In this document: piece after piece, positions 25,542-41,574 of the stretch
Layout: each line of letters opens with the position of its first letter
How positions within the stretch are numbered: position 1 is the stretch's first letter
From: Gemmatimonadales bacterium
Lineage (GTDB): Bacteria > Gemmatimonadota > Gemmatimonadetes > Gemmatimonadales > GWC2-71-9
DNA: 64,000 nucleotides
Assembly (NCBI GenBank): GCA_036390255.1
Contig: DASWCE010000230.1
Span: 5,701-69,700, forward strand
Direction: 5' to 3'
Program-made: the position numbers and the translations under genes
The notes under the pieces: model-generated
Database searches by the model: none
Told to the model about the DNA's origin: nothing
Seen by the model: the letters and a program-made list of their open reading frames with translations, nothing else

Positions 25542-26341
25542 GTCTCGTTTCGACACCGGCTGTCGTTCTCCGAACCTACCGCTACAGCGAGACCTCCAAG
25601 ATCGTGCGCCTGGCCACGCGCGACTACGGCGTGCAGAGCGCGATCGCCAAGGGCGTGCTGCGGCCCCGGAGCCCGTTCGGGGCGGCGCTCGAGACGTTGA
25701 GCGAAGGTGTGGCGCAGCTCTATCACAAAGAGACGCGCGAGCTCCAGACACTCGCCGCGTTCGACGTCATCCAGCTCCGGCGCGGCCTGGCGGATGACGT
25801 GGGCCGGTTTGCCGGCGCGGCGGCGCTGTCCGAAGTGATGCTGAAGATGGCCCCGCCCGCACCCTTGCCGGCCGCCTACGAGGCGTTCATCCGGGGACTG
25901 GATGCGCTGGTCCGAGCCGAAGCGGGACAGACCGATGCGGCAGCGGTGCGTTGGCTGTGGCTGCTCGTTGGGGTCCTCGGCTTCGCGCCGCAGCTCGACG
26001 CCTGTGTCCGAGACGGCACCGCCGTATCGGGGACCGTCGCATTCAGCGTTGCCGAAGGTGGCGTGCTCTGCGCGAAATGCGCGGCGTCGCCCCCGCAGAC
26101 GCCGGCCAAGCTGCCGCCGCAAGCCTATCGCGATCTCGTCGCCTTGAATGATGAACAGGCGCCACTGCCCGCGCTCGATGCCCCGCATGCCGCGGCCCAT
26201 CGGCGGCTCATCGCCCGCTTCGTCCGGCACCATCTCGACGAGACGCGGCGCAATGGCAGTGAACCGAAGTCGAGCGCCATAGACATCTGGGAGCGTCGCG
26301 CGTGGGTCCCCCCCCCGCCCCCCCCGCCTCCCGCTTCGTAG
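25538..26341 (+). CDS. recO: DNA repair protein RecO
   Basis: [27 protein letters not shown]-fold N-terminus and zinc-finger-like CVRDG...CAKC; GTGA overlap with the upstream stop. C-terminus is a run of eight prolines. Confidence 0.85.
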
Positions 26342-28191
26342 TCGGCACGGCCGGCCACATCGACCACGGTAAGACGGCGCTCGTGAAGGCCCTCACCGGA
26401 GTCGACACGGACCGTTGGGAAGAGGAGAAGCGCCGCGGGATCACGATCGATCTCGGATTCGCCCCGTTGCCACTACCGGGCGGCATTCACGCCAGCGTCG
26501 TCGATGTGCCCGGTCACGAAGGATTCGTCAAGAACATGCTCGCCGGGGCGACCGGCATCGATGTCGCGCTGCTCGTCATCGCCGCCGATGAAGGCATCAT
26601 GCCGCAGACGGAGGAGCATCTCGCCATCGTCGAGCTGCTCGGCGTGCGCCGCGGCATTCCGGTCCTCACCAAGCGCGATCTCGTGGATGACGAGTGGCTG
26701 GGACTGGTGCGCAACGAAGTCGCTGAGCGCCTCTCCCGCAGCAAGGTGCGGTGGCACGCGCCGATCCCCGTTAGCGCTCTCAACGGCGAGGGGTTGGAGG
26801 ATCTGAAACAAGCGTTGGTGGAAGTTGTGGAGGACCTGCGTGAACGGCCTGCGGGCGACCTGTTTCGCTTGCCAATCGACCGCGTCTTCGCACTCGCCGG
26901 AGCGGGGACGGTTGTGACGGGCTCGACGTGGAGCGGGACTGTTTCGGCGGGCGGCAACGTTCGACTCCTCCCCTTGGACCGGGAAGCTCGCGTGCGGTCG
27001 ATCCAAGTACACGGTCAGGACGCGGGGCAGGCGGGCCCGGGCCGCCGCACCGCCCTGGCGCTGGTTGGGGTCGCCAAAGAGGAGATCGAGCGCGGGCACG
27101 TCGCCGTGACCGGCTCAGGTTGGACAGCGACGAGCACGCTCGATGTGGCGCTCGAGCTGCTTCCCGCAGCCCGCAAGCCGCTGGCCGCACGAACCCGCAT
27201 TCGTGTGCATCTCGGCACGGCCGAGGTGCTGGGGCGCGTGGCGCAGGTGCGGGCGATCGCCCCCGGCGCGTCCGATTTGGCGCGGCTGCTGCTCGAGCGG
27301 CCGCTCGTGGCGCGCGGCGGCGACCGCTTCGTCATTCGGAGCTTCTCGCCGGTCACGACCATAGGGGGGGGCGAAGTGCTCGACCCCTTTCCGCCCAAGC
27401 GCCCCCGCATATCCGAGCGCGGCCTGTCGGTTGGCCAAGCCCCCGCCGAACGGCTCGCGCGCTTCGTGGATGAAGCCGGTGTTGCCGGCTTGCGTGCTGG
27501 CGACATCACTGTGCGCCTCGGCATTCTCCCGGCGGACGTCCCTGCCACGATCGCGGCGACCGGCAAGGCCGTCCTGTCCGTAAGCGAGTTTCTGGTCGCG
27601 CGTCGCGCGCTTACGGCGGAGGTGGAGCGGCTCACCAGTGTGGTGGCCGCGCATCACCAGCAACACCCCCTCGACCCTGGCCTGTCGCTGCAGGCGTTAC
27701 GAGCGGGCGTCAACGCTCCGCCGACTGTGCTCGACCTTCTGGTCGAGCACGGCGTGAAGAAGCAGGCGTGGGAGGTGGTAGAGGGCGGCGCCGCCGTCCG
27801 AAAGCCTGGATGGAGTGCGGCGCTCAAGGCGCGAGCGAACGATGCCGGCGGCAGACTGGCGCAGCGCTTGGCCGAAGCCCGGTGGCAGTTGCCCACGGTC
27901 TCAGAATTGCAGCGTGAGTTCTCGGATCCATCCGTCCCGGCCCTCCTCGCGCATCTGGCGCGCGAAGGTTCACTTGAGCGCGTAGATCAGGAGCGCTATG
28001 CCCCAAAGGAGGCGTTGGACGAATTCCGACGCGCGGTCGAGGAGACGCTACGCGAGCTGGGCGCCGCCACGCCTGCACAGTTTCGGGATAGGCTCGGTCT
28101 GACGCGCAAGTACTTGATACCGCTGCTCGAGTGGGCCGACCGGCGGGGCATCACCAGCCGTAAGGGAGATACTAGGGTTCTCCGTGCTTGA
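26302..28191 (+). CDS. selB: Selenocysteine-specific translation elongation factor
   Basis: G-domain [27 protein letters not shown] and TKRD, plus a long C-terminal winged-helix-type extension (629 aa). Confidence 0.9.
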
Positions 28192-28832: not shown

Positions 28833-31448
<2,616 letters not shown>

Positions 31449-31452
31449 AGGC

Positions 31453-31902
31453 ATGGCCGCCGCGCTTGAGCAGGCGCGGCGTGCCGCTGCCCAAGACGAA
31501 GTGCCGATCGGTGCCGTTGTCATGCGCGGCGACGAGATCGTCGCCGAGGCGCACAACGAAACCGTCGCGCGCAAAAATCCCACCTATCATGCGGAGTTTC
31601 TGGCCATCGTGCGGGCGCTCGAGGCGTTAGAGACGGATCGGCTCACCGACTGTACGCTCTACGTCACGATCGAGCCGTGCGCGCAGTGCGCCGGCGCTAT
31701 CGTGCTGGCGAAGGTCGCGAAAGTCGTGTTTGGCGCGTACGATGAGAAAGCGGGGATGTGCGGGTCGGTGGGAGACATCGTGCGGCATCCCCGATTGAAC
31801 CACCGCGTGGATGTCCAAAGTGGGGTCGAAGCTGAAGCCTGCACGGAGTTGATTAGAGATTTTTTTGCAGCAAAACGCCCAGCGCCTCAGCCGCCTCGCT
31901 GA
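31453..31902 (+). CDS. tadA: tRNA-specific adenosine deaminase
   Basis: EVPIGAVV, HAEFLAI and VTIEPCAQCAGA zinc-deaminase motifs. Confidence 0.9.
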   Translation: MAAALEQARRAAAQDEVPIGAVVMRGDEIVAEAHNETVARKNPTYHAEFLAIVRALEALETDRLTDCTLYVTIEPCAQCAGAIVLAKVAKVVFGAYDEKAGMCGSVGDIVRHPRLNHRVDVQSGVEAEACTELIRDFFAAKRPAPQPPR

Positions 31903-32980
31903 TTTGTGCATCCGTGAGGTATGGCGCCGGACCCAGCCGTAACAGCTCTCCCCGATAGTCGGTCCAGATGTTCTTCTTGCGTAACGCTTTTTGAATCTTC
32001 GCAGCCCGCGGCGCCGGGATCGCTAGGAATCCACCAATTGCATCGTTCCTCGAGCCACCAGACAGAATCTCGATTTGATGCTGGTTGAGCTCGCGCAGCT
32101 TCGGCGGCGTGAGCTTCTGGTCTTCGAAGAACTTGAAGACTGACGCCGCTCGATAGTGGCTCGTAAAGTCGTAGGTCGCACCCGCAAATCGCGCCGGCCC
32201 TGGACCATACGCGACACGACCGCCTGCCCGTGAGCGGCTGAGATCTGTGAATTCGCTGAACCAGCCGGTTACGACCGGCCGCAGATCGGAGTCCTGGGGA
32301 AACCGCAGAAACGCATTGCCGGGGCCGAGCTGGCAGTACTTGTATCCACCTCCGACGACGTACGCACGCTGCAGTCCTTCCGCTATAAGAGAAAACGGCA
32401 CGACGTTGAGCGCGTGATACGCGTCCACCACCAGTTCCGCGCCCACGCGCTCGCAGGCCTCCTGGACTACGCGGAGATTTGGGATGATGTGGGCATTCGT
32501 GTAAAGCACCGCGGACACGAGAACGGCTGCGGTGCGATCGTCCACCGAAATCGCCAGCCGCTCGGCCAGCGTCGCCGAAGGCATTGCCGGCACCTTGATG
32601 ACCTCGATGCCTTCTTCCGCCAAGCGATCAAGCTGGCGACGGATAGTGTGAAACTCAGCGTCTGTCGTCACCAGCTGGGGGCGCTTGCGGAGGGGCAGCG
32701 CCGACAGGAACCGCACGACGAGCTCATGGGTGTTTTGCGCCAGCGCGATGCGCTCGGGCGTATCGTCCAGGAGCCGTGCGAACCCGCGCCGCACCTCATC
32801 GGCCTTTGCAAACGCGAGATCCCACACGTCGTCGACATGCTCGGCAGTATCGAGCCACGCCTGCGCCTGCGCTTCGAACCCTACGTCCGGCCACGCCTGA
32901 TGTGAGTGACCTGTGAGAAGGATGCGCTCTGTGACGCGAAACCGGCGATAATGCTTGGCGAGCTCTTCCGGTGTGATCAC
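31853..32980 (-). CDS. kynU: Kynureninase (divergent, PLP fold type I)
   Basis: DAYHALNVVPFSL and the PLP-lysine context VVGGGYKYCQLGPGNAF (compare YKYLNGGPG in known kynureninases), TGWFSE, and C-terminal DYRGELLRLGPAPYL. GTGA overlap with the kynA stop. Confidence 0.78.
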   Translation of the reverse strand: MITPEELAKHYRRFRVTERILLTGHSHQAWPDVGFEAQAQAWLDTAEHVDDVWDLAFAKADEVRRGFARLLDDTPERIALAQNTHELVVRFLSALPLRKRPQLVTTDAEFHTIRRQLDRLAEEGIEVIKVPAMPSATLAERLAISVDDRTAAVLVSAVLYTNAHIIPNLRVVQEACERVGAELVVDAYHALNVVPFSLIAEGLQRAYVVGGGYKYCQLGPGNAFLRFPQDSDLRPVVTGWFSEFTDLSRSRAGGRVAYGPGPARFAGATYDFTSHYRAASVFKFFEDQKLTPPKLRELNQHQIEILSGGSRNDAIGGFLAIPAPRAAKIQKALRKKNIWTDYRGELLRLGPAPYLTDAQISEAAEALGVLLQKNL

Positions 32981-33759
32981 AGCTCGGAGCGAATCGCCCA
33001 CAGATCGGGAAAGGCTGGTTGATTCAACGTCGTGAGCAGATACTCGGCCCCCGCCGAACCCCCCGTGCCCGGCTTCGTCCCGATCGTCCGCTGCACCATC
33101 TTCACATGCCGATACCGCCACTCCATGAACCCCTCATCCAAATCCACCAGCCGCTCGGCGATCTGGGCAACCGTCGGGTTCTTCTTGTAGACCTCGACGA
33201 GAATCCGCTGTATTTCTGGTGACGGCTCGTACATCTGGCTGAAATCCCGCTGGAGCAACGCCTTCGGTACGGGATACTTGTTGGCCGCGAGATACTGAAG
33301 GAAAGCATCCCACAACGTCGGCTGGCTGAATCGACGCTCGACGCGTTTCCGGTTCTCGCTGCCCTCCGGATAGCGCTCGAACGAAGGCCGTCCCTTCTTG
33401 CCCAGCATGAATTCGATCTCGCGAAACTGATGCGACTGAAAGCCGCTCCCCGACTCCAACCGGTCCCGGAACGCCAAAAAGTTGAGCGGCGTGATCGTCT
33501 CGAGTACGTCAATCTGTGCAACTAATGTCTTGAGGATGGTGAGGATTCGTTTCAGAGTCGCTGCTGCGAGCGGGGTGTCGTTTGCGCGCAGGAGCTTCTG
33601 CAAATAGTCGAGCTCGTGCAGCACTTCTTTGAACCACAGCTCGTAGACCTGGTGGATGATCACAAAGAGTGTCTCGTCGTGCTCCAGCTCGCCTGGTCGG
33701 GGCTGCTGGAGCGACAAAAGCTCGTCGAGCTTCAAGTAACTCGAGTACGTGACGGTCAT
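32977..33759 (-). CDS. kynA: Tryptophan 2,3-dioxygenase
   Basis: [16 protein letters not shown] and [19 protein letters not shown] (haem-pocket His region); ATGA overlap with the upstream stop. Confidence 0.92.
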
Positions 33760-36005
33760 GGGCGTGGCTTGTAGCGGTTGAGCGTGGCGTACGGATCGGG
33801 CCAGGGCAGCGGATAGCCTTGCTCGTACGCCGCGTGCCGAGTCCAGTAAGGATCCCACAGATGCGCGCGTGCCAGCACGCACAGATCGGCGCGGCCGGCC
33901 GCGAGAATCGTGTTCACATCCTGGTACGACGAGATGTTGCCGACCGCCATCGTCGCAATGCCGACTTCGTGGCGAATGCGGTCGGCGAACGGGGTCTGAA
34001 ATTGCCGGCCGTACTGCGGCTTTGCATCGGCGACGGTTTGGCCCGCCGAGACGTCCGTGATGTCGCAGTCGTGCGCCTTCAGCATGCGGGCGACTTCGAC
34101 CGAATCGGCGGGCTGCATTCCACCCGGCACCCAGTCGACCGCGGAGATGCGCACCGACATCGGCTTATGGGAGGGCCAGGCGCCGCGCGCCGCGTCGAAC
34201 ACCTCGAGCGGAAACCGCATCCGATTTTCGAGCGAGCCGCCATACTCGTCCGTCCGCTTGTTCGTGAGTGGCGAGATGAAGCTCGCCAGCAAATAGCCGT
34301 GCGCGAAATGGAGCTCGAGCAGATCGAACCCCGCCTCGTGCGACATCTGCGCCGCCCGCACGAAGTGTTCCTTCACCTCGTCCATGTCGGCGCGCGTCAT
34401 CTCTTTGGGCACCTGACTGTAGGGGAAGTAGGGCAGGGGCGACGCCGAGATGATGGGCCAGTTTCCGTCGGGCAACGGCTCGTCCATCCCCTCCCACATG
34501 CGCTGGGTGGACGCCTTGCGTCCGGCGTGACCGAGCTGCATCGCGATCTTCGCATTGCTGTTCACGTGCACAAAGTCCACGATCCGCTTCCAGGCTGCGA
34601 CATGCTCGGGCTTGTACATGCCGGTGCAGCCCGGCGAAATCCGACCCTCTCGGGATACGTCCGTCATCTCGCTGAACACGAGCCCCGCACCGCCGATCGC
34701 TCGGCTTCCGAGATGCACCAGATGCCACTGGTTCGGCGTCCCGTCCTCTGCGACGTATTGGCACATCGGCGAAACCACGACGCGGTTACCGAGGAGCAGG
34801 TCGCGGAGCTTGAAGGGCGTGAACATGGGCGGGGGGGCGTGGGGCGTGGGGCGTGGTACCTGGGATTGCTTCTCTGCTTGATCGGCGTACCACTGGTCGA
34901 TCTCCTCGACGAATTTCGGATCGCGCACCTTGAGATTGTCGTGGGTGATGCGGAGGCTACGCGTGAGCAGATTGAACGCGAACTGCGGCGGCTCGAGGCT
35001 CATGTAGCGCTCGGTGTCTTCGAACCACTGCAGGCTCACTTGCGCGGCGCGCTGTAGACTCTCGACGGCCGGCCGGCGCTCGGTCTCGTATTCAGAGAGT
35101 GCGGTGCCCACGTCGGGGTGGCGTTGCAGCGCGCCGGCGAGCGCGATCGCATCTTCGATCGCGAGCTTGGTCCCCGATCCCACCGAGAAATGGGCCGTGT
35201 GCGCGGCGTCGCCGAGCAGGACGACATTGCCATGCGACCAGACGGCGTTCTTCACGGTGACGAACCGACGCCACAGCGAGCGGTTCTGCTGCAGGCGATG
35301 ACCCTCGAGCTCTTCTTTGAACAGGGCCTCGCAGAACGCGACGGTCTCGTCTTCAGTGGCGGTGTCGAGCCCCGTGTTGCGCCAAACCGCGTCGGTCGTC
35401 TCGACAATGAATGTCGAATGTCCCTGCTCGTACTGATATGCGTGCACACGCCACAGGCCGTGCTTGTCACGCTTGAAGTAGAACGTGAAGGCGGGGAAGG
35501 GGCGGGTGGTACCGAGCCAGACGAACCGGTTGGGCCGCTCGTCAAACGACGGCTGAAAATGCTCACGGAACCGTCCCCGCACGGTGCTGTTGAACCCGTC
35601 GGCACCGATGACGAGATCCGCGTCGGCATAGACCGCCGGATCCGTGACTTCGGTCCCGACTTCGATGCACACACCGAGCTCCTCACACCGCTCGCCTAAC
35701 ACTCCCAGCAGCGCGCGCCGCGATAGCCCGCTGAATCCGTGGCCGCTCGACGTGATCACGTGGCCGCGGTAATGGATGTCAATGTTGTCCCAGTGCGCGA
35801 AGTGACTCGCCATCGCATCGTAAGTCTCGGGATCGGCAGCGGCCAGATTGTTCTGCGTCGCGTCGGAGAAGACGACGCCGAACCCATACGTGTCGTCCAG
35901 ACGATTGCGCTCGAGAATCGTAATCTCGTGCTTCGGATAGGCCTTCTTCATCAGAATGCCGAAGTACAGCGCCGCCGGCCCGCCGCCGATCGTGACGATT
36001 CTCAT
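33756..36005 (-). CDS. Fusion of FAD aromatic-ring monooxygenase and OYE-type NAD(P)H:flavin oxidoreductase (2-aminobenzoyl-CoA monooxygenase/reductase or salicylyl-CoA 5-hydroxylase type)
   Basis: N-terminal half: [23 protein letters not shown] and [19 protein letters not shown]-terminal half: [15 protein letters not shown] and [14 protein letters not shown] (Old Yellow Enzyme family). 749 aa. Confidence 0.8.
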
Positions 36006-37138
36006 TTGATGAGCTGGCCCGCGATGATGAGGTGCTGGATTTCCGTCGTCCCCTCGTAGATGCGCAAGGCGCGCACGGAGCGGTAGAGCCGATCGACGGG
36101 ATGGTCGGCCAGCACCCCGCGACCGCCCAGGATCTGGACCGCGTCATCGACGATCCGCTGGGCGGCTTCGGTCGCGAACGCCTTCGCCATCGCGGCCTCG
36201 AGCGTGACGCGCGGCGCGCCGCGATCCTTTTCCCACGCCGCCCGATAGACGAGCAGCCGCGCCGCCGTCAGGTCGGTGGCCATCCGGGCCAGTTTCTCCT
36301 GAATCAGCTGGAAATCGGCGATCGGCTTGCCGAACTGTCGCCGCGATTTCGCATGGGCGAGTGCTTCGGCCAGCGCGCGCGTCGCCATGCCGCACGCCGC
36401 CGCGCCGACGGTCGCGCGCACCCGGTCCAGCGTGGCCAGACCCAGCTTGAACCCTTCGCCCGGAGGATCGAGCCGGCACGCGCTCGGCACCGACGCCTGC
36501 TGAAACGCAATCTCCCCCAGCGGGTGCGGCGCAGACAGGAGCAGCGGCCGCACGAATCGTAGCCCCGGGGTATCGGCCGTGACGACGAAACACCCGATGC
36601 CCTTGTCCTTCTTGGCGCGGTCGGTGGTCGCGAAGACCGTATAAAAGTCGGCGATGCCGGCATTGGAGATGAAGGTCTTCGTGCCTGAGAGCAAATAGCC
36701 GTCGCCGTTTGGTTCCGCGGTCGCGCCGAGCGAGGCGACATCGGAGCCGGCATCGGGCTCGGTCATCGCGAACGACGCCATCGCGTGACCCTGAATCGCC
36801 GGGTCGAGCCAGCGCTGGCGCATGGCATCGTTGGCGGAGAGCAGCATCGGGACGACGCCAAGCGCCTGCAACGCGAACACGGCGTCGGCGAGCGGTGACG
36901 CCGCGGCGAGCGCCTCGCGCACAATACAACAGGCGCGCCAATCCTGATCGCGAATCGGCTTGAGCCAGCCGGCGGCGCCCAGTTTCCCGAGGAGCTCGCG
37001 GGCCTGCTGGCGCGCAGTCGCATCATCCTTCGGCTCGGCGAGCGGCGCGAGCTGGCGCATGGCGAACTCGCTCACACGGGCGGCCAGGGTCAGGTGCCGC
37101 TCGTCGAGGAATGCGCGGACCGGCGCCGTGTCGACCAT
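36002..37138 (-). CDS. Acyl-CoA dehydrogenase
   Basis: [19 protein letters not shown] and [10 protein letters not shown] motifs; ATGA overlap downstream. Confidence 0.9.
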
Positions 37139-37938
37139 CAGATGAACTTGGGATCGCGCTTGGCGCGGAACGCATCGTGCGCTTCGCGGAAGTTCGGTCC
37201 CTGCATGAGCTGCGCCTGCACCTCCGCCTCATACGCCAGCGCGGCGTCCAGGTCGAGTGCGGCTTCCGCTTCGAGCGCCTGCTTCGTCACGCCCAGTGCG
37301 GCCGACGGTCCGCGCGCCAGCCGCTCGGCGACACCGCGCGCCTCCGGCAGGACCTGCGCCTGCGGCACGACTCGGTTGTAGAGCCCGATCTCGTACGCCC
37401 GTTTCGCGTCCATGAAGTCGCCACTGAGCAGCAGCTCCGCCGCGTGGCCGTAGCCGATGAGGCGCGGCAGGAGCCAGGCCGCACCCATGTCGGCGCCCGA
37501 GAGTCCGACTCTGGTAAAGAGAAAAGCAATCTTCGCCGACTCGGCGGCCACGCGAATGTCGCAGGCAGCGGCGATGACCGCTCCCGCGCCGGCCACGGTG
37601 CCGTTGAGCGCGCCGACGATCGGCCGGCGGCAGCGCCGCATGGCGAGGATGAGGTCGCAGGTGATGCGGGTGAAGTGCTTCAACGCCTCGAGGTCACGCC
37701 CGAGCAACGCCCCGATGATGTCCTCGACGTCGCCACCCGAACAGAATGCGCGACCGGCCCCAGTAATGATGATGGCGCGGACGCCGGGCTCCGTGTCGAG
37801 GCCCTGGAAAGCGTCGCGCAGCTCCTTGTACACGGCGAACGTGAGTGCATTGAGCCGCTCAGGGCGGTTGAGCGTGATCGTGGCGACCTGAGTCTTCTGG
37901 TCGAGCTCGTAGAGGAACGACTCCGCGAAGACGCTCAT
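37138..37938 (-). CDS. Enoyl-CoA hydratase/isomerase (crotonase) family protein
   Basis: ITLNRPERLNAL and GAGRAFCSGGD motifs; ATG 37938 overlaps the RidA stop (ATGA). Confidence 0.88.
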   Translation of the reverse strand: MSVFAESFLYELDQKTQVATITLNRPERLNALTFAVYKELRDAFQGLDTEPGVRAIIITGAGRAFCSGGDVEDIIGALLGRDLEALKHFTRITCDLILAMRRCRRPIVGALNGTVAGAGAVIAAACDIRVAAESAKIAFLFTRVGLSGADMGAAWLLPRLIGYGHAAELLLSGDFMDAKRAYEIGLYNRVVPQAQVLPEARGVAERLARGPSAALGVTKQALEAEAALDLDAALAYEAEVQAQLMQGPNFREAHDAFRAKRDPKFI

Positions 37939-38315
37939 AGTATGGCGACCGCTTCGATCTCGACGAGCGCCTTGGAGTCCATCAGCGATTTCACTTCGAC
38001 GACGGCCATCGCCGGATAATGACGGCCCATATGTTTGCGGTGAACCTCGCCCAGCGGGCTCAAGTTGGCGAGATACGCCGCGCGGTCCGTGATGTAGCAG
38101 ATCATGCGCCCGACGTTTTCCGGCGTGCCGCCGGCCGACCGCACGACCTCCATCACACGCCCCAGCGCGCCGTCCCATTGCGCGACGAAATCACCGACGG
38201 GAACGATCTGGCCGGCGACGAACAAAATGCGCCCGCCCTTCTCCGCCAGCATCCCGTGATTCCAGCCACTCGGCCGCGCGCCGAATATTTTGGGGTTGAT
38301 GATCTCGTACACCAT
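37935..38315 (-). CDS. RidA/YjgF-family (enamine/imine deaminase family) protein
   Basis: 126 aa; ILFVAGQI...MICYITD...PAMAVVEVKSL...VEIEAVA, typical of the family. Confidence 0.82.
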   Translation of the reverse strand: MVYEIINPKIFGARPSGWNHGMLAEKGGRILFVAGQIVPVGDFVAQWDGALGRVMEVVRSAGGTPENVGRMICYITDRAAYLANLSPLGEVHRKHMGRHYPAMAVVEVKSLMDSKALVEIEAVAIL

Positions 38316-38323
38316 TGCTCTCC

Positions 38324-39088
38324 CTATCCTGCGATCGTAACGGCCGTGCCGTTGGGTCGCTGGCCATGCGGGTCGGCGAGCGCCAGGACGGCTTCGGCGA
38401 CTTCTTCCGGCGTGATCAGCCGCCGCTGTGACGCCGACGCCAGCAACGCGGACAGTGCGGCAGCGGGATCCTTGCCCGTCTTCGTGACGACACGCTCGAC
38501 TGATTCCTGAGTCATCTCGGTATCTACAAAGCCGGGACAGACCGCATTGCACGTCACGCCGGTGCCTTCGACCTCGGCGGCGACACTTTGTGTCAGGCCG
38601 ATCACGGCATGCTTGGCCGCGGCGTACGCGGCGATATAGCGCCCACCTGTCAGTCCCGCGACCGACGCGACATTGACGATCGAGCCTCGTCCGCGCTCGA
38701 GCATGCCGCCGAGGAACGCGCGCGTACACAGAAACGTACCTGTCGCGTTCACTGCCAGCACGCGGTTCCAGTCCTCGAGCGAGGTCTTCGCCACCGGTGC
38801 GCTATGCGCAACCCCGGCGTTGTTGACCAGGATGTCGACGCTTCCGGCACTTCGCGTGGCAGCCTTGACGAGATCCGCGACACTGGCCACGTCGGTGACG
38901 TCGCATGGCACCGCCCACGCCTTGCCGCCACGGCCGCGGATTTCAGTTGCAACCTGCTCGATGCGATCGGTGCGGCGCGCCGCGACGACGACCGCGGCGC
39001 CCTCGGCGGCCAGCGCGTTCGCGACGGCGGCGCCGATGCCCTGGCCGCCCCCGGTGACCAACGCGACCGCGCCGTCAAATCTCCGCAA
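38324..39088 (-). CDS. Short-chain dehydrogenase/reductase (3-hydroxyacyl-CoA/3-oxoacyl reductase-like)
   Basis: AGGAGG 6 nt before TTG 39088; ALVTGGGQGIGAA, NNAG and YAAAKHA (YxxxK) motifs. Confidence 0.88.
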   Translation of the reverse strand: MRRFDGAVALVTGGGQGIGAAVANALAAEGAAVVVAARRTDRIEQVATEIRGRGGKAWAVPCDVTDVASVADLVKAATRSAGSVDILVNNAGVAHSAPVAKTSLEDWNRVLAVNATGTFLCTRAFLGGMLERGRGSIVNVASVAGLTGGRYIAAYAAAKHAVIGLTQSVAAEVEGTGVTCNAVCPGFVDTEMTQESVERVVTKTGKDPAAALSALLASASQRRLITPEEVAEAVLALADPHGQRPNGTAVTIAG

Positions 39089-39830
39089 GCACGGCCTCCT
39101 CGAGGATCGCACCCAACGCGTCAACGAGACGCGAGCCCTCGCCGGCGGTGGCGGCGGCGGGGTCGCCAAAGTAAGCGCGTGGACCACCGGCTTCCTCGAA
39201 CGTTCGTTTGCCCGCACGGATCGCGTCGGAGAGCGAGGGCGGGTTGGGCGGCAAAGTGCCCCGGACCGCCTCGCGGACGGCCGCGGGACGCTCGCTGAGG
39301 ACGATCGAGCTCTCGAACTGGCCCGCGTGACACGCGCCGCTTTTGAATTCCTCTCCGAGCCTCAAGGCCCACGGCTTCTGCGTCAGGTCGGGGAAGACGA
39401 CCGGCAGCAGCCGATCGGCGCGAGCGAGCTTCACGGCTTCGTTCAGCGCCGTGAGATGCTCCGGGTCGAGATGGGCATTGGCGATCGCCAGCAGTCGAAA
39501 CCCTTGCTGCGACAGGCTGCGCGCCAGATCCACGATGACGGCGGTGACTGTGATTCCGGAAATGGACAACGTGCCGTGAAACGCGGCGCCGAAGCTGGCC
39601 GCGGTATAGGCGAGCGCGGGCAGAATCACGCTGTCATTCCCCCGTGCCGCGAGCCGCATGGCTCCCGCTCGGGCCATGGCACTGGCGATCAGGACGTCGG
39701 TCTCGAGCGGGAGATGCGGCCCGTGCGCTTCGATGGCTCCGATGGGCAGTATCGCTAGGGTGCGCGCGCGGCCCAAGTCCCGGACTTCCTCCCAGGTGAG
39801 TTGCGCCAGCTCATGAACCGGCATCATCAT
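39075..39830 (-). CDS. Creatininase (creatinine amidohydrolase) family metal-dependent hydrolase
   Basis: LTWEEV...LPIGAIEAHGPHLPLETD plus the downstream IANAHLDP and CHAGQFESS segments; starts with ATGATGATG. Confidence 0.8.
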   Translation of the reverse strand: MMMPVHELAQLTWEEVRDLGRARTLAILPIGAIEAHGPHLPLETDVLIASAMARAGAMRLAARGNDSVILPALAYTAASFGAAFHGTLSISGITVTAVIVDLARSLSQQGFRLLAIANAHLDPEHLTALNEAVKLARADRLLPVVFPDLTQKPWALRLGEEFKSGACHAGQFESSIVLSERPAAVREAVRGTLPPNPPSLSDAIRAGKRTFEEAGGPRAYFGDPAAATAGEGSRLVDALGAILEEAVLAEI

Positions 39831-39838
39831 CCTTTCGC

Positions 39839-41362
39839 ATGCTACGCGAGATCCCTGAGCGTCTGAACATCGCCGATTGGCTGTTGGACGCGCGCGTCCG
39901 GGAGGGGAGGGGAGACCGGCCGGCGCTGCTGACAGACCAGGGCACACTCACCTACCGTGAGGTGCAGACGCTCGCGAACCGATTCGGTCATCTGCTCCAG
40001 AGCGCCGGCGTAGAGCCGGAACAACGCGTGATCATCGCGCTCCCCGATGGGCCGGAGTTCGTCGCCGCGCTGTTCGGCACACTCAAAGTTGGCGCGGTGG
40101 TGGTGATGGTCAACCCACAGCTGGCCGTAGATGCGATCGAGTACTTCTACACATACACGAGAGCCACGGTCGCACTCGTGCACCGCCACACCGCACCGGT
40201 ATTTCAGGCGGCGCGCAGTGCCGCCGGAAGCTATCTCAAGCAGATCATTGTGGTGGGGGAGCCGGGAACGGCGCGTGCCATCGACGGCGCGTCACCCGAC
40301 CAGGACACGTTCCCGAGTCACCGCGACGACGCCGCGATCTGGTTGTTCTCCGGCGGCACGACCGGCAAGCCGAAGGCGGTGGTACAAAGTCACCGCTCTT
40401 TCGCCAATACGACCCTGTGTTACGGTCAAGGCGTGCTCGGTCTTACGGAGCGTGACATCACGCTTGCGGTACCGAAGCTGTTCTTTGGGTACGCGACCGG
40501 CTCGAACCTGTTCTTTCCGTTTTCGGTCGGTGCGGCGGTCGCCCTGTTTCCCGAGAAGAGCACCGCGGAAACGCTGTTCGCCAAGATCCGCAGATTCGGC
40601 CCGACGGTCCTCGTGAACGTGCCGACGATGGTGAACCAGATGGTCGCTCATCCCGACGCCAAGCAGCAGGATCTGTCGTCGCTCCGGCTCGCGACCTCCG
40701 CCGGCGAAGCGCTGCCCGTCGAGCTGTATGAGCGCTGGAAGAAGACGTTCGGGGTGGAGCTACTCGACGGACTCGGCACGGCGGAGATGTGGCACATCTT
40801 CATTTCGAACCAGCCCGGCGCGGTCAAGCCTGGCACGATCGGGACCGTCGTACCGGGCTTCGACGTCAGAGTGCGCGACGACCTGGGGCACGACTTGCCG
40901 GATGGTGAAGTCGGCATGCTGTGGGTGCGCGGCGGATCGCGGGCGATCGGCTACTGGCAGCAGATGGAGAAGACGCAGGCTGCATTCCGCGGCGAGTGGT
41001 ACGTCTCGGGCGATCTCATCCGCCGCGATGCCGAGGGCTACTTCACCTACTGCGGTCGCGCCGACGACTTGTTGAAGGTCGGGGGCAAATGGCTCGCGCC
41101 ACAGGAGGTGGAAGGTTGTTTGCTCCAGCACCCGCTCGTCAAAGAAGTCGCCGTCGTGGGTGTGGAAGATGCGAGTGGGTTGACGAAGCCGCATGCGTTT
41201 GTCGTTGCGACGGAAGAACGGCCAGGCCTTGCCGAGGAGCTTCAGGCATTCGCCCGCGAGCGACTGGAGCCGTACAAGGCGCCGCGCACGGTCAGATTCC
41301 TCGATGCTCTCCCCCGAACCCACTTGGGCAAGGTGGACCGTGGCAAGCTCCGGCTTCAATGA
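39839..41362 (+). CDS. Benzoate-CoA-ligase-family aryl-CoA ligase (candidate 2-aminobenzoate-CoA ligase)
   Basis: AMP-binding core WLFSGGTTGKPKAV, YVSGDLIRRDAEGYFTYCGRADDLLKVGGKWL and C-terminal PRTHLGKVDR. Confidence 0.88.
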   Translation: MLREIPERLNIADWLLDARVREGRGDRPALLTDQGTLTYREVQTLANRFGHLLQSAGVEPEQRVIIALPDGPEFVAALFGTLKVGAVVVMVNPQLAVDAIEYFYTYTRATVALVHRHTAPVFQAARSAAGSYLKQIIVVGEPGTARAIDGASPDQDTFPSHRDDAAIWLFSGGTTGKPKAVVQSHRSFANTTLCYGQGVLGLTERDITLAVPKLFFGYATGSNLFFPFSVGAAVALFPEKSTAETLFAKIRRFGPTVLVNVPTMVNQMVAHPDAKQQDLSSLRLATSAGEALPVELYERWKKTFGVELLDGLGTAEMWHIFISNQPGAVKPGTIGTVVPGFDVRVRDDLGHDLPDGEVGMLWVRGGSRAIGYWQQMEKTQAAFRGEWYVSGDLIRRDAEGYFTYCGRADDLLKVGGKWLAPQEVEGCLLQHPLVKEVAVVGVEDASGLTKPHAFVVATEERPGLAEELQAFARERLEPYKAPRTVRFLDALPRTHLGKVDRGKLRLQ

Positions 41363-41392: not shown

Positions 41393-41479
41393 GGATAGGT
41401 GGCCGAGCGGCTGAAGGCACACGCCTGGAGAGCGTGTAAACGGGTAACCGTTTCGTGGGTTCGAATCCCACCCTATCCG
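41393..41479 (+). tRNA. tRNA-Ser (anticodon GGA)
   Basis: Hand-folded cloverleaf: acceptor GGATAGG/CCTATCC, anticodon stem CACGC/GCGTG with loop CTGGAGA, long variable arm, T-loop GGTTCGAATCC, discriminator G. No encoded CCA. Confidence 0.93.
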
Positions 41480-41482
41480 CTT

Positions 41483-41569
41483 GGACAGGTGGGTGAGTGG
41501 TTGAAACCGCCGGTCTCGAAAACCGGTATGCCCGCAAGGGCATCGAGGGTTCGAATCCCTCCCTGTCCG
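41483..41569 (+). tRNA. tRNA-Ser (anticodon CGA)
   Basis: Acceptor GGACAGG/CCTGTCC, anticodon stem CCGGT/ACCGG with loop CTCGAAA, long variable arm ATGCCC-GCA-GGGCAT, T-loop GGTTCGAATCC. Lies 3 nt after the previous tRNA. Confidence 0.93.
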
Positions 41570-41574
41570 TCCCC

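Follow-up and report, generated by a model that had tools for sequence, protein, structure and literature searches.

The 64-kb window analyzed here (64,000 nucleotides of contig DASWCE010000230.1 from a Gemmatimonadales bacterium) harbors an operon of eight minus-strand genes with a divergently transcribed aryl-CoA ligase gene at its head, which probably serves to degrade L-tryptophan to central metabolites via anthranilate and the aerobic 'hybrid' 2-aminobenzoyl-CoA pathway. On the basis of comparative genomics and homology, the best-supported reading leads from tryptophan over N-formylkynurenine, kynurenine, anthranilate and 2-aminobenzoyl-CoA to a non-aromatic CoA ester and a beta-oxidation-like phase, as had been proposed in a preliminary description of this DNA. 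Underlying this reading are the gene content of the operon, the family memberships of its products, the tight coupling of its genes and the conservation of their arrangement; what we infer is co-transcription, each of the substrates and, for the steps that follow the fusion enzyme, their sequence.

In the proposed route, KynA, a tryptophan dioxygenase (TDO), would convert tryptophan to N-formylkynurenine, and the formyl group would be removed before or after the kynureninase step, with the creatininase-family enzyme as a candidate for this activity. The short kynureninase would release anthranilate and alanine, and the divergently transcribed ligase of the benzoate-CoA ligase (BCL) family would turn anthranilate into 2-aminobenzoyl-CoA, the predicted substrate of a fusion of an FAD-monooxygenase with an Old Yellow Enzyme (OYE). 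Removal of the amino group would fall to a Rid-like protein and/or the creatininase-family amidohydrolase, while a crotonase-family enzyme annotated as enoyl-CoA hydratase (ECH), a short-chain dehydrogenase/reductase (SDR) and an acyl-CoA dehydrogenase (ACAD) would open and oxidize the alicyclic CoA ester. To our knowledge, nothing is established past the monooxygenase/reductase step of the aerobic 2-aminobenzoyl-CoA pathway.

Based on the listing of open reading frames and an analysis of start codons, the eight co-directional genes occupy the minus strand from 39830 down to 31853, and the ligase gene lies on the plus strand (Table 1). All nine genes of the preliminary description were recovered when coordinates and junctions were re-derived, including the divergent ligase gene on the opposite strand, whose start is separated from the head of the operon by 8–14 bp. 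Within the operon, the genes follow one another with overlaps of 14, 4, 1, 4, 4 and 4 nt and a single 8-nt gap. Within the operon, the minus strand shows no terminator-like sites, and the GC content is uniform over the region.

The conservation of this arrangement was followed in two scans. A genome scan with an alignment of the fusion protein against species-representative genomes gave 80 loci from many phyla, which were annotated by phmmer with the proteins of the window and reference proteins; a scan of metagenomes, for which the creatininase-family protein served as query, gave 80 contigs, about 21 of which reach past the fusion gene. The full order, with the ligase gene diverging from creatininase-SDR-Rid-ECH-ACAD-fusion-kynA-kynU, was found in five metagenome-assembled genomes (MAGs) of Gemmatimonadota and in one Longimicrobiales MAG (60% fusion identity), and fusion identity across the genomes and contigs with conserved order ranges from 60 to 97%. 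Among the ~21 evaluable metagenome contigs, kynA-kynU directly follow the fusion gene in 18; one contig shows only kynA, one carries the pair beyond the ligase gene and one has neither. Taken over genomes and metagenomes, ~25 independent contigs show translational coupling of kynA-kynU to the fusion gene. In a neighbor-joining tree of 105 fusion proteins, the clusters with a creatininase-family gene and a BCL-type ligase gene form one clade, in which the members lacking kyn genes are nested. The operon arrangement is far beyond what chance would produce. All genome loci of this type (G-type, i.e. clusters like the operon of the window) stem from MAGs, with no cultured strain among the scanned representatives, and the related contigs originate largely from soil metagenomes.

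Kynurenine-pathway genes also occur near fusion genes in other lineages. On the Rhodococcus qingshengii plasmid pN9T4-1 (L003:980-12504), a TDO gene and a kynureninase-like gene for a pyridoxal phosphate (PLP) enzyme lie ~6 kb from a ligase-thioesterase-fusion group. A Chloroflexota operon has the order fusion-MarR-ECH-ACAD-ligase-kynU-Rid, with a kynureninase of the canonical type encoded between the ligase and Rid genes, and Solirubrobacterales and Caulobacter loci contain kynureninase-like or KynB-like genes near the fusion gene. Ligase and cupin genes accompany actinobacterial fusion genes in two cases, the Rhodococcus locus L003, which additionally carries thioesterase, FAH-family and TDO-kynureninase genes, and L004 from Streptantibioticus cattleyicolor pSCAT. 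These two loci resemble a CoA-dependent form of the route via 5-hydroxyanthranilate/gentisate that has been reported from Nocardia opaca.

The central enzyme of the operon scores 1160.6 bits on the NCBIfam model NF006101 (cut-off 1078), with residues 1–742 aligned. This family comprises 2-aminobenzoyl-CoA monooxygenase/reductase (AbmA, also ACMR) and salicylyl-CoA 5-hydroxylase (SdgC), in which an N-terminal FAD-dependent aromatic-hydroxylase domain and a C-terminal FMN-dependent OYE domain share a single polypeptide of ~750–790 aa. The presence of both PF01494 and PF00724 bears out the fusion architecture described earlier, and by architecture, score and motifs the protein is a member of the family. 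Structures in the PDB matched it domain by domain, with OYEs covering residues 392–745 and VioD residues 1–345. Cofactor and catalytic motifs are retained in both domains: GGGP, DG..NS..R, GDAAH, PM.QY and H-x-x-H-G-Y are invariant across eight fusion homologues (52–78% identity), and the OYE domain also keeps its Cys and Tyr residues. The nearest relatives are encoded in Gemmatimonadales MAGs (85–97% identity). In a tblastn search the protein is ~54.5% identical to Ralstonia homologues, one of which (L001) is located in an abm-syntenic cluster. The best-supported reading is a fusion of the AbmA/ACMR type, predicted to act on 2-aminobenzoyl-CoA.

The abm clusters provide the closest comparison for the remaining genes. 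The aerobic 2-aminobenzoyl-CoA pathway had been described in Azoarcus evansii by 1992 (cited in PMC4539516), and both this pathway for 2-aminobenzoate and the corresponding clusters, with the functions of AbmA, AbmB, AbmC and AbmG, are established (PMC4539516; PMC8879955 supplement). These clusters and the syntenic ones of Cupriavidus, Ralstonia, Burkholderia and Paracoccus share with the window the fusion AbmA, the SDR AbmB, the NF006107 crotonase AbmC, an ACAD and an aryl-CoA ligase, and the proteobacterial versions contain a Rid-family gene as well. In contrast to the window, the proteobacterial clusters lack kynA/kynU and the creatininase-family gene, while they carry a MarR gene, usually a hotdog thioesterase gene and an AbmG-type ligase gene. 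The Ralstonia order fusion-SDR-MarR-ECH-ACAD-ligase-thioesterase-Rid corresponds to the abmA-B-C-D-G order tabulated for Cupriavidus versus A. evansii. Of the partner genes of such clusters, SDR, crotonase and ACAD are present in the window and co-directional, but neither an AbmG-type ligase nor a MarR regulator was found.

At the level of single proteins, the ECH exceeds the cut-off of the PRK08258 equivalog NF006107 (350 vs 330 bits), a model on which the abm-type ECH of Ralstonia reaches 506; it is the predicted orthologue of the abm-cluster ECH, and its activity could be that of a hydratase or of a hydrolase that opens the ring. The SDR reaches 214 bits on adh_short, 227 bits against the Ralstonia SDR and 225 on PRK12429 (229 in Ralstonia). 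The ACAD reaches 325 bits against the ACAD of the Ralstonia cluster, and its best NCBIfam models are glutaryl-CoA, acryloyl-CoA and cyclohexane-1-carbonyl-CoA dehydrogenases, every one below cut-off. The nearest named relatives of ACAD and SDR are enzymes of alicyclic or dicarboxylic acyl-CoA esters, again below cut-offs. Judged from these similarities, the SDR is the likely counterpart of AbmB and the ACAD that of the ACAD in abm-type clusters.

The Rid-family protein belongs to PF01042 (47.8 bits) but stays far below the cut-off of TIGR00004, the model for RidA as a 2-iminoacid deaminase (30.8 vs 106.25 bits). A Met occupies the conserved YPAM motif where RidA has Arg105 (P-A-R), a residue that binds the substrate carboxylate in RidA. 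The same replacement was seen in every Rid sequence inspected, namely in G-type, actinobacterial and Dormibacterota homologues and in one of the Ralstonia type. The gene families named in the preliminary description hold by Pfam and NCBIfam, with the qualifications that 'kynU' is short and divergent and that 'RidA' lacks Arg105; as neither this residue nor the TIGR00004 score is that of a canonical RidA, the latter name is given up here. In the fusion tree, the Rid gene accompanies the fusion gene in most clades. Such a pattern agrees with a substrate bearing an amino group, whereas for salicylyl-CoA a Rid protein would serve no purpose. The protein is a candidate enamine/imine deaminase for an amino-cyclohexenoyl-CoA intermediate.

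Upstream of the ring-modifying steps, anthranilate would be supplied by KynA and KynU. KynA matches the Pfam family Trp_dioxygenase with 210 bits (cut-off 34.9), matches the structures 2nox and 2nw7 of bacterial TDOs along its entire length (E 1e-50) and contains the haem-region motifs HQxxELW and WRYRH. For KynU, a search of the PDB with the family profile yielded the Pseudomonas fluorescens kynureninase 1qz9 over the full length (E 2e-18), followed by IscS at 5e-4. Conserved are the D..H motif, the PLP-lysine in YKY, GWF and R..G.aPY, which includes the carboxylate-binding Arg. The protein is 56% identical to an annotated kynureninase adjoining a TDO in Streptomyces goshikiensis, and close homologues are named kynureninase by both JGI and NCBI. 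An AlphaFold model of the KynU-like protein, based on an alignment of homologues with ≥84% identity, had a mean pLDDT of 47 and was too poor for use. KynU is probably a short, divergent kynureninase that is predicted to cleave kynurenine to anthranilate and L-alanine. As in the kynA-kynB-kynU systems of Pseudomonas, Bacillus and Cupriavidus, the TDO gene adjoins the gene for the probable kynureninase and anthranilate is the predicted product; unlike in these systems, the window has no cyclase-type KynB, the probable kynureninase is short and divergent, and anthranilate would pass to a neighboring CoA ligase instead of an anthranilate dioxygenase.

The ligase reaches 485.6 bits on TIGR02262 (cut-off 375.25) with both PF00501 and PF13193 present, and its PDB matches are benzoate-CoA ligase 2v7b (399 bits) and the anthranilate-CoA ligase AuaEII 4wv3 (389 bits). 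Its earlier assignment to the BCL family stands, but the protein is not of the AbmG type and not an orthologue of AbmG. The closest annotated plasmid homologue (48% identity) diverges from TDO-kynureninase genes in an enediyne-type cluster of Streptomyces goshikiensis (L166:5809-9509). This cluster shares with the window the triad of TDO, kynureninase (56%) and ligase (48%) in the same divergent layout, so that TDO, short kynureninase and BCL-type ligase constitute a recurring three-gene module. The presence of the triad implies an anthranilate-derived building block in this Streptomyces cluster, where, unlike in the window, the anthranilate unit goes into a natural product and fusion, ECH, ACAD, SDR, Rid-family and creatininase-family genes are missing. 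We predict that the ligase of the window is an anthranilate-CoA ligase.

Several results weigh against the tryptophan pathway. On TIGR03036, KynA reaches 272 bits and thus stays below the equivalog cut-off of 390.7, and KynU is barely recognized by Pfam (KYNU_C, 28.7 bits vs a cut-off of 27) and matched no kynureninase model of NCBIfam. A KynB-type formamidase of the cyclase family, with its HxGTHxDxPxH motif, was found in none of the six frames of the 64-kb window, which leaves the formamidase step without an assigned gene in the operon, and a thiolase gene is not present in the operon either. Identity between the ligase and the AbmG-type ligase of Ralstonia is only 36%, and the Ralstonia enzyme does not reach the TIGR02262 cut-off. 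Adjacent kynA/kynU are missing from the clusters of two MAGs of Gemmatimonadota and one of Acidobacteriota (L013, L017, L021), so the coupling to kyn genes is not obligatory. Concerning expression, the 8–14 bp between the divergent starts leave no room for intergenic promoters. Finally, both the NCBIfam model and NCBI product names label the fusion as salicylyl-CoA 5-hydroxylase, and comparison of sequences alone gave no separation of ACMR from SdgC. The assignment to anthranilate consequently rests on context, i.e. on kynA-kynU, the Rid gene, the relatives of the ligase and the abm-type partners.

The short divergent spacer deserves a closer description. Only 8 bp separate the start codon of the ligase gene from that of the creatininase-family gene, a distance that grows to 14 bp with the third ATG of the latter (39824). 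This ATG is preceded by an AAAGGA Shine-Dalgarno sequence and corresponds to the start of the homologues. An 8-bp spacing is common to six close relatives, while in most others the spacer comprises ~45–99 bp (mode ~65) and is conserved and GC-rich; the lineage of the window seems to have lost an intergenic promoter/operator region. Given the 8–14 bp between the start codons, promoters would lie inside coding sequences or the transcripts would be leaderless. A scan for sigma-70-like promoters gave no sites, and no regulator gene was found in or beside the operon.

Among the alternatives, the fusion enzyme might only hydroxylate its substrate to 5-hydroxyanthraniloyl-CoA, with cleavage of the 5-hydroxyanthranilate/gentisate ring encoded elsewhere, as in Nocardia. 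ACMR has been reported to yield 5-hydroxyanthraniloyl-CoA under limiting NADH (PMC3534580), a gentisate route for anthranilate is known from Nocardia opaca (PMC4539516), and the Rhodococcus plasmid and Streptantibioticus relatives mentioned above set the fusion gene beside cupin, FAH-family and thioesterase genes. We nevertheless consider such a truncated reaction very unlikely for the window, where the OYE domain retains H-x-x-H-G-Y and the Cys/Tyr residues, and where ECH, ACAD and SDR genes belong to the operon but genes for a thioesterase, a cupin or an FAH-family protein do not.

According to a second alternative, the fusion is an SdgC-type salicylyl-CoA 5-hydroxylase, salicylate is degraded via gentisyl-CoA, and kynA/kynU are functionally unlinked neighbors. 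In addition to the label of NF006101 and of the NCBI product names, the fact that the ligase family also holds hydroxybenzoate ligases would agree with this view. SdgC of Streptomyces sp. WA46 (sdgABCD) resembles the fusion in its two-domain architecture and its place in the NF006101 family, a likeness at the level of architecture and family model; the sdg pathway continues via gentisate ring cleavage, whereas genes for a gentisate 1,2-dioxygenase, a thioesterase or enzymes of the maleylpyruvate pathway are missing from the operon, which instead contains amino-group-related and kynurenine genes. Further evidence against salicylate comes from the conserved Rid-family (deaminase-type) gene, from the 4-nt overlap by which kynA-kynU are coupled to the fusion gene and which is kept over the ~25 contigs, from the ECH, which passes the abm-type equivalog, with SDR and ACAD matching abm-type cluster genes, and from the nearest annotated plasmid relative of the ligase, which is paired with TDO-kynureninase. 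Taken together, salicylate degradation is highly improbable.

Naming within the fusion family differs between databases, as NCBI and NF006101 use 'bifunctional salicylyl-CoA 5-hydroxylase/oxidoreductase' and JGI uses 'anthraniloyl-CoA monooxygenase'. The NCBI label is attached to every member of the fusion family, though most of them are found in abm-type, Rid-containing clusters, and a salicylate pathway has already been inferred in at least one paper from this label alone. The 'sdgC' assignment in a Massilia paper is based on annotation only and was not used as evidence here.

A supply of anthraniloyl-CoA by ligase and kynA/kynU for secondary-metabolite biosynthesis in place of catabolism, as suggested by the TDO/short kynureninase/BCL-type ligase triad of the Streptomyces enediyne cluster and by antimycin clusters, which pair TDO, kynureninase and an anthranilate-activating enzyme (PMC5883857), is exceedingly improbable in a window that has no PKS, NRPS or tailoring genes and shows housekeeping surroundings (tadA, clpB, selB, tRNA-Ser, citrate synthase), and in which six of the eight operon genes represent the abm-type degradative set.

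Returning to the degradation of tryptophan via 2-aminobenzoyl-CoA, the creatininase-family protein deserves attention with respect to the formamidase step. It belongs to PF02633 (172 bits) and keeps the metal-binding and catalytic residues E34, H36, D45, H120 and H178 of creatininase 1q3k, with E122 replaced by D. The scores on the subfamily equivalogs are below the thresholds, both for MftE (TIGR03964, 113.9 vs 172) and for creatininase (TIGR04448, 82.5 vs 235), which points to an unnamed subfamily. In the genome scan, the gene is confined to loci with a BCL-type ligase gene, including a Dormibacterota operon at 36% identity, and it diverges from the ligase gene in essentially every metagenome contig displaying this junction. 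A strict linkage to kynA/kynU was considered and rejected, the gene being present in L013, L017, L021 and L037 without adjacent kyn genes; it tracks the BCL-type ligase rather than kynA/kynU. A tblastn search with the protein against plasmids gave only distant matches (≤37% identity) in uninformative contexts.

Members of the creatininase family are known to hydrolyze N-formyl-arylamines, an activity proven for archaeal ArfB. It has likewise been proven for BrbF (PMC9478397). The KynB motif was not found in any G-type locus, as in the window. One possible explanation, which we put forward tentatively and on which we would not rely, is that the creatininase-family protein is a novel, non-orthologous aryl-formamidase which might act on N-formylkynurenine or N-formylanthranilate, fill the KynB step and feed anthranilate to the divergent ligase. 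Since four clusters retain the gene although no kyn genes adjoin it, and since it tracks the BCL-type ligase, its product could equally belong to the lower pathway and hydrolyze a C-N or C-C bond of the alicyclic CoA ester.

A different setting of the gene was observed in a metagenome contig (L107:1-8000), in which TDO and ligase genes run in one direction and the divergent creatininase-family gene is followed by genes for an inositol-monophosphatase-family protein, a hotdog thioesterase and a Rieske oxygenase alpha subunit. This contig has no fusion gene, and the creatininase-family gene still stands with TDO and ligase genes though the lower pathway is replaced. It may represent a different downstream route for anthraniloyl-CoA.

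Table 1 Genes of the operon and the divergent ligase gene, with positions in the window.
Feature	Position	Strand	Details
Aryl-CoA ligase, benzoate-CoA ligase family	39839..41362	+	507 aa, TIGR02262
Spacer between divergent start codons	39831..39838		8 bp
Creatininase-family gene	39830 (more likely 39824)..39075	-	first gene of the operon, 249–251 aa, PF02633
SDR	39088..38324	-	TTG start, 14-nt overlap upstream, 254 aa, adh_short
Rid-family gene	38315..37935	-	8-nt gap upstream, 126 aa, PF01042
Enoyl-CoA hydratase (crotonase family)	37938..37138	-	4-nt overlap, 266 aa, NF006107
Acyl-CoA dehydrogenase	37138..36002	-	1-nt overlap, 378 aa, all ACAD Pfam domains
FAD-monooxygenase::OYE fusion	36005..33756	-	4-nt overlap, 749 aa, PF01494 and PF00724
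kynA (TDO)	33759..32977	-	4-nt overlap with the fusion stop, 260 aa
kynU	32980..31853	-	GTG start, 4-nt overlap with the kynA stop, 375 aa

The operon is flanked by housekeeping genes. A tadA-like cytidine/adenosine deaminase gene (31381-31902, plus strand) is convergent with kynU and overlaps its 3' end by ~50 nt, and clpB and selB are located beyond it. The selB gene (26302-28191, plus strand) encodes the selenocysteine-specific elongation factor, which implies that the organism makes selenoproteins. Directly 3' of the ligase gene lies a tandem pair of tRNA-Ser genes with the anticodons GGA and CGA (41393-41572, plus strand; 1–3 nt apart), followed by genes for a TPR protein, an M20 peptidase and citrate synthase. 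An Rfam scan identified these two tRNA genes and nothing else.

Parts of this picture have been described before. A route from tryptophan to anthraniloyl-CoA is listed as a concept in GapMind, where it was "omitted for lack of knowledge" (PMC9007349), and a reconstruction for Cupriavidus leads from tryptophan via kyn genes, anthranilate and abmG to the abm genes, with kyn and abm genes at separate loci in C. metallidurans (PMC8879955). In Arthrobacter, CoA-ester intermediates were detected, consistent with a CoA-dependent anthranilate route (PMC3534580); in strain Rue61a, unlike in the window, the degradation of quinaldine is the source of anthranilate, and kynA/kynU are not linked to the genes of the route. 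Our survey of the literature on 2-aminobenzoyl-CoA or anthraniloyl-CoA together with kynureninase, and on Gemmatimonadota together with kynurenine or anthranilate, revealed no description of the fused operon, its distribution in Gemmatimonadota or the variant with creatininase-family gene and BCL-type ligase. The preliminary claim that the coupling is uncharacterized holds in this sense for the operon but not for the pathway concept, which had already been listed, so that the novelty is limited to the coupling at the level of the operon and to what the operon is composed of.

Altogether, eight coupled genes and a ligase gene, with neither a regulator nor a thioesterase gene, contain the presumed route in full, from tryptophan down to aliphatic CoA esters. 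With this compact set of genes, the lower steps of the pathway could be reconstituted in a heterologous host, and the creatininase-family hydrolase and the Rid protein without the Arg are two candidates for missing activities. The clusters also provide a basis for correcting the salicylyl-CoA hydroxylase names at NCBI. Gemmatimonadota are a phylum that is abundant in soil and little cultured, and the operon suggests how tryptophan could supply these soil bacteria with carbon and nitrogen independently of a ring-cleaving dioxygenase.

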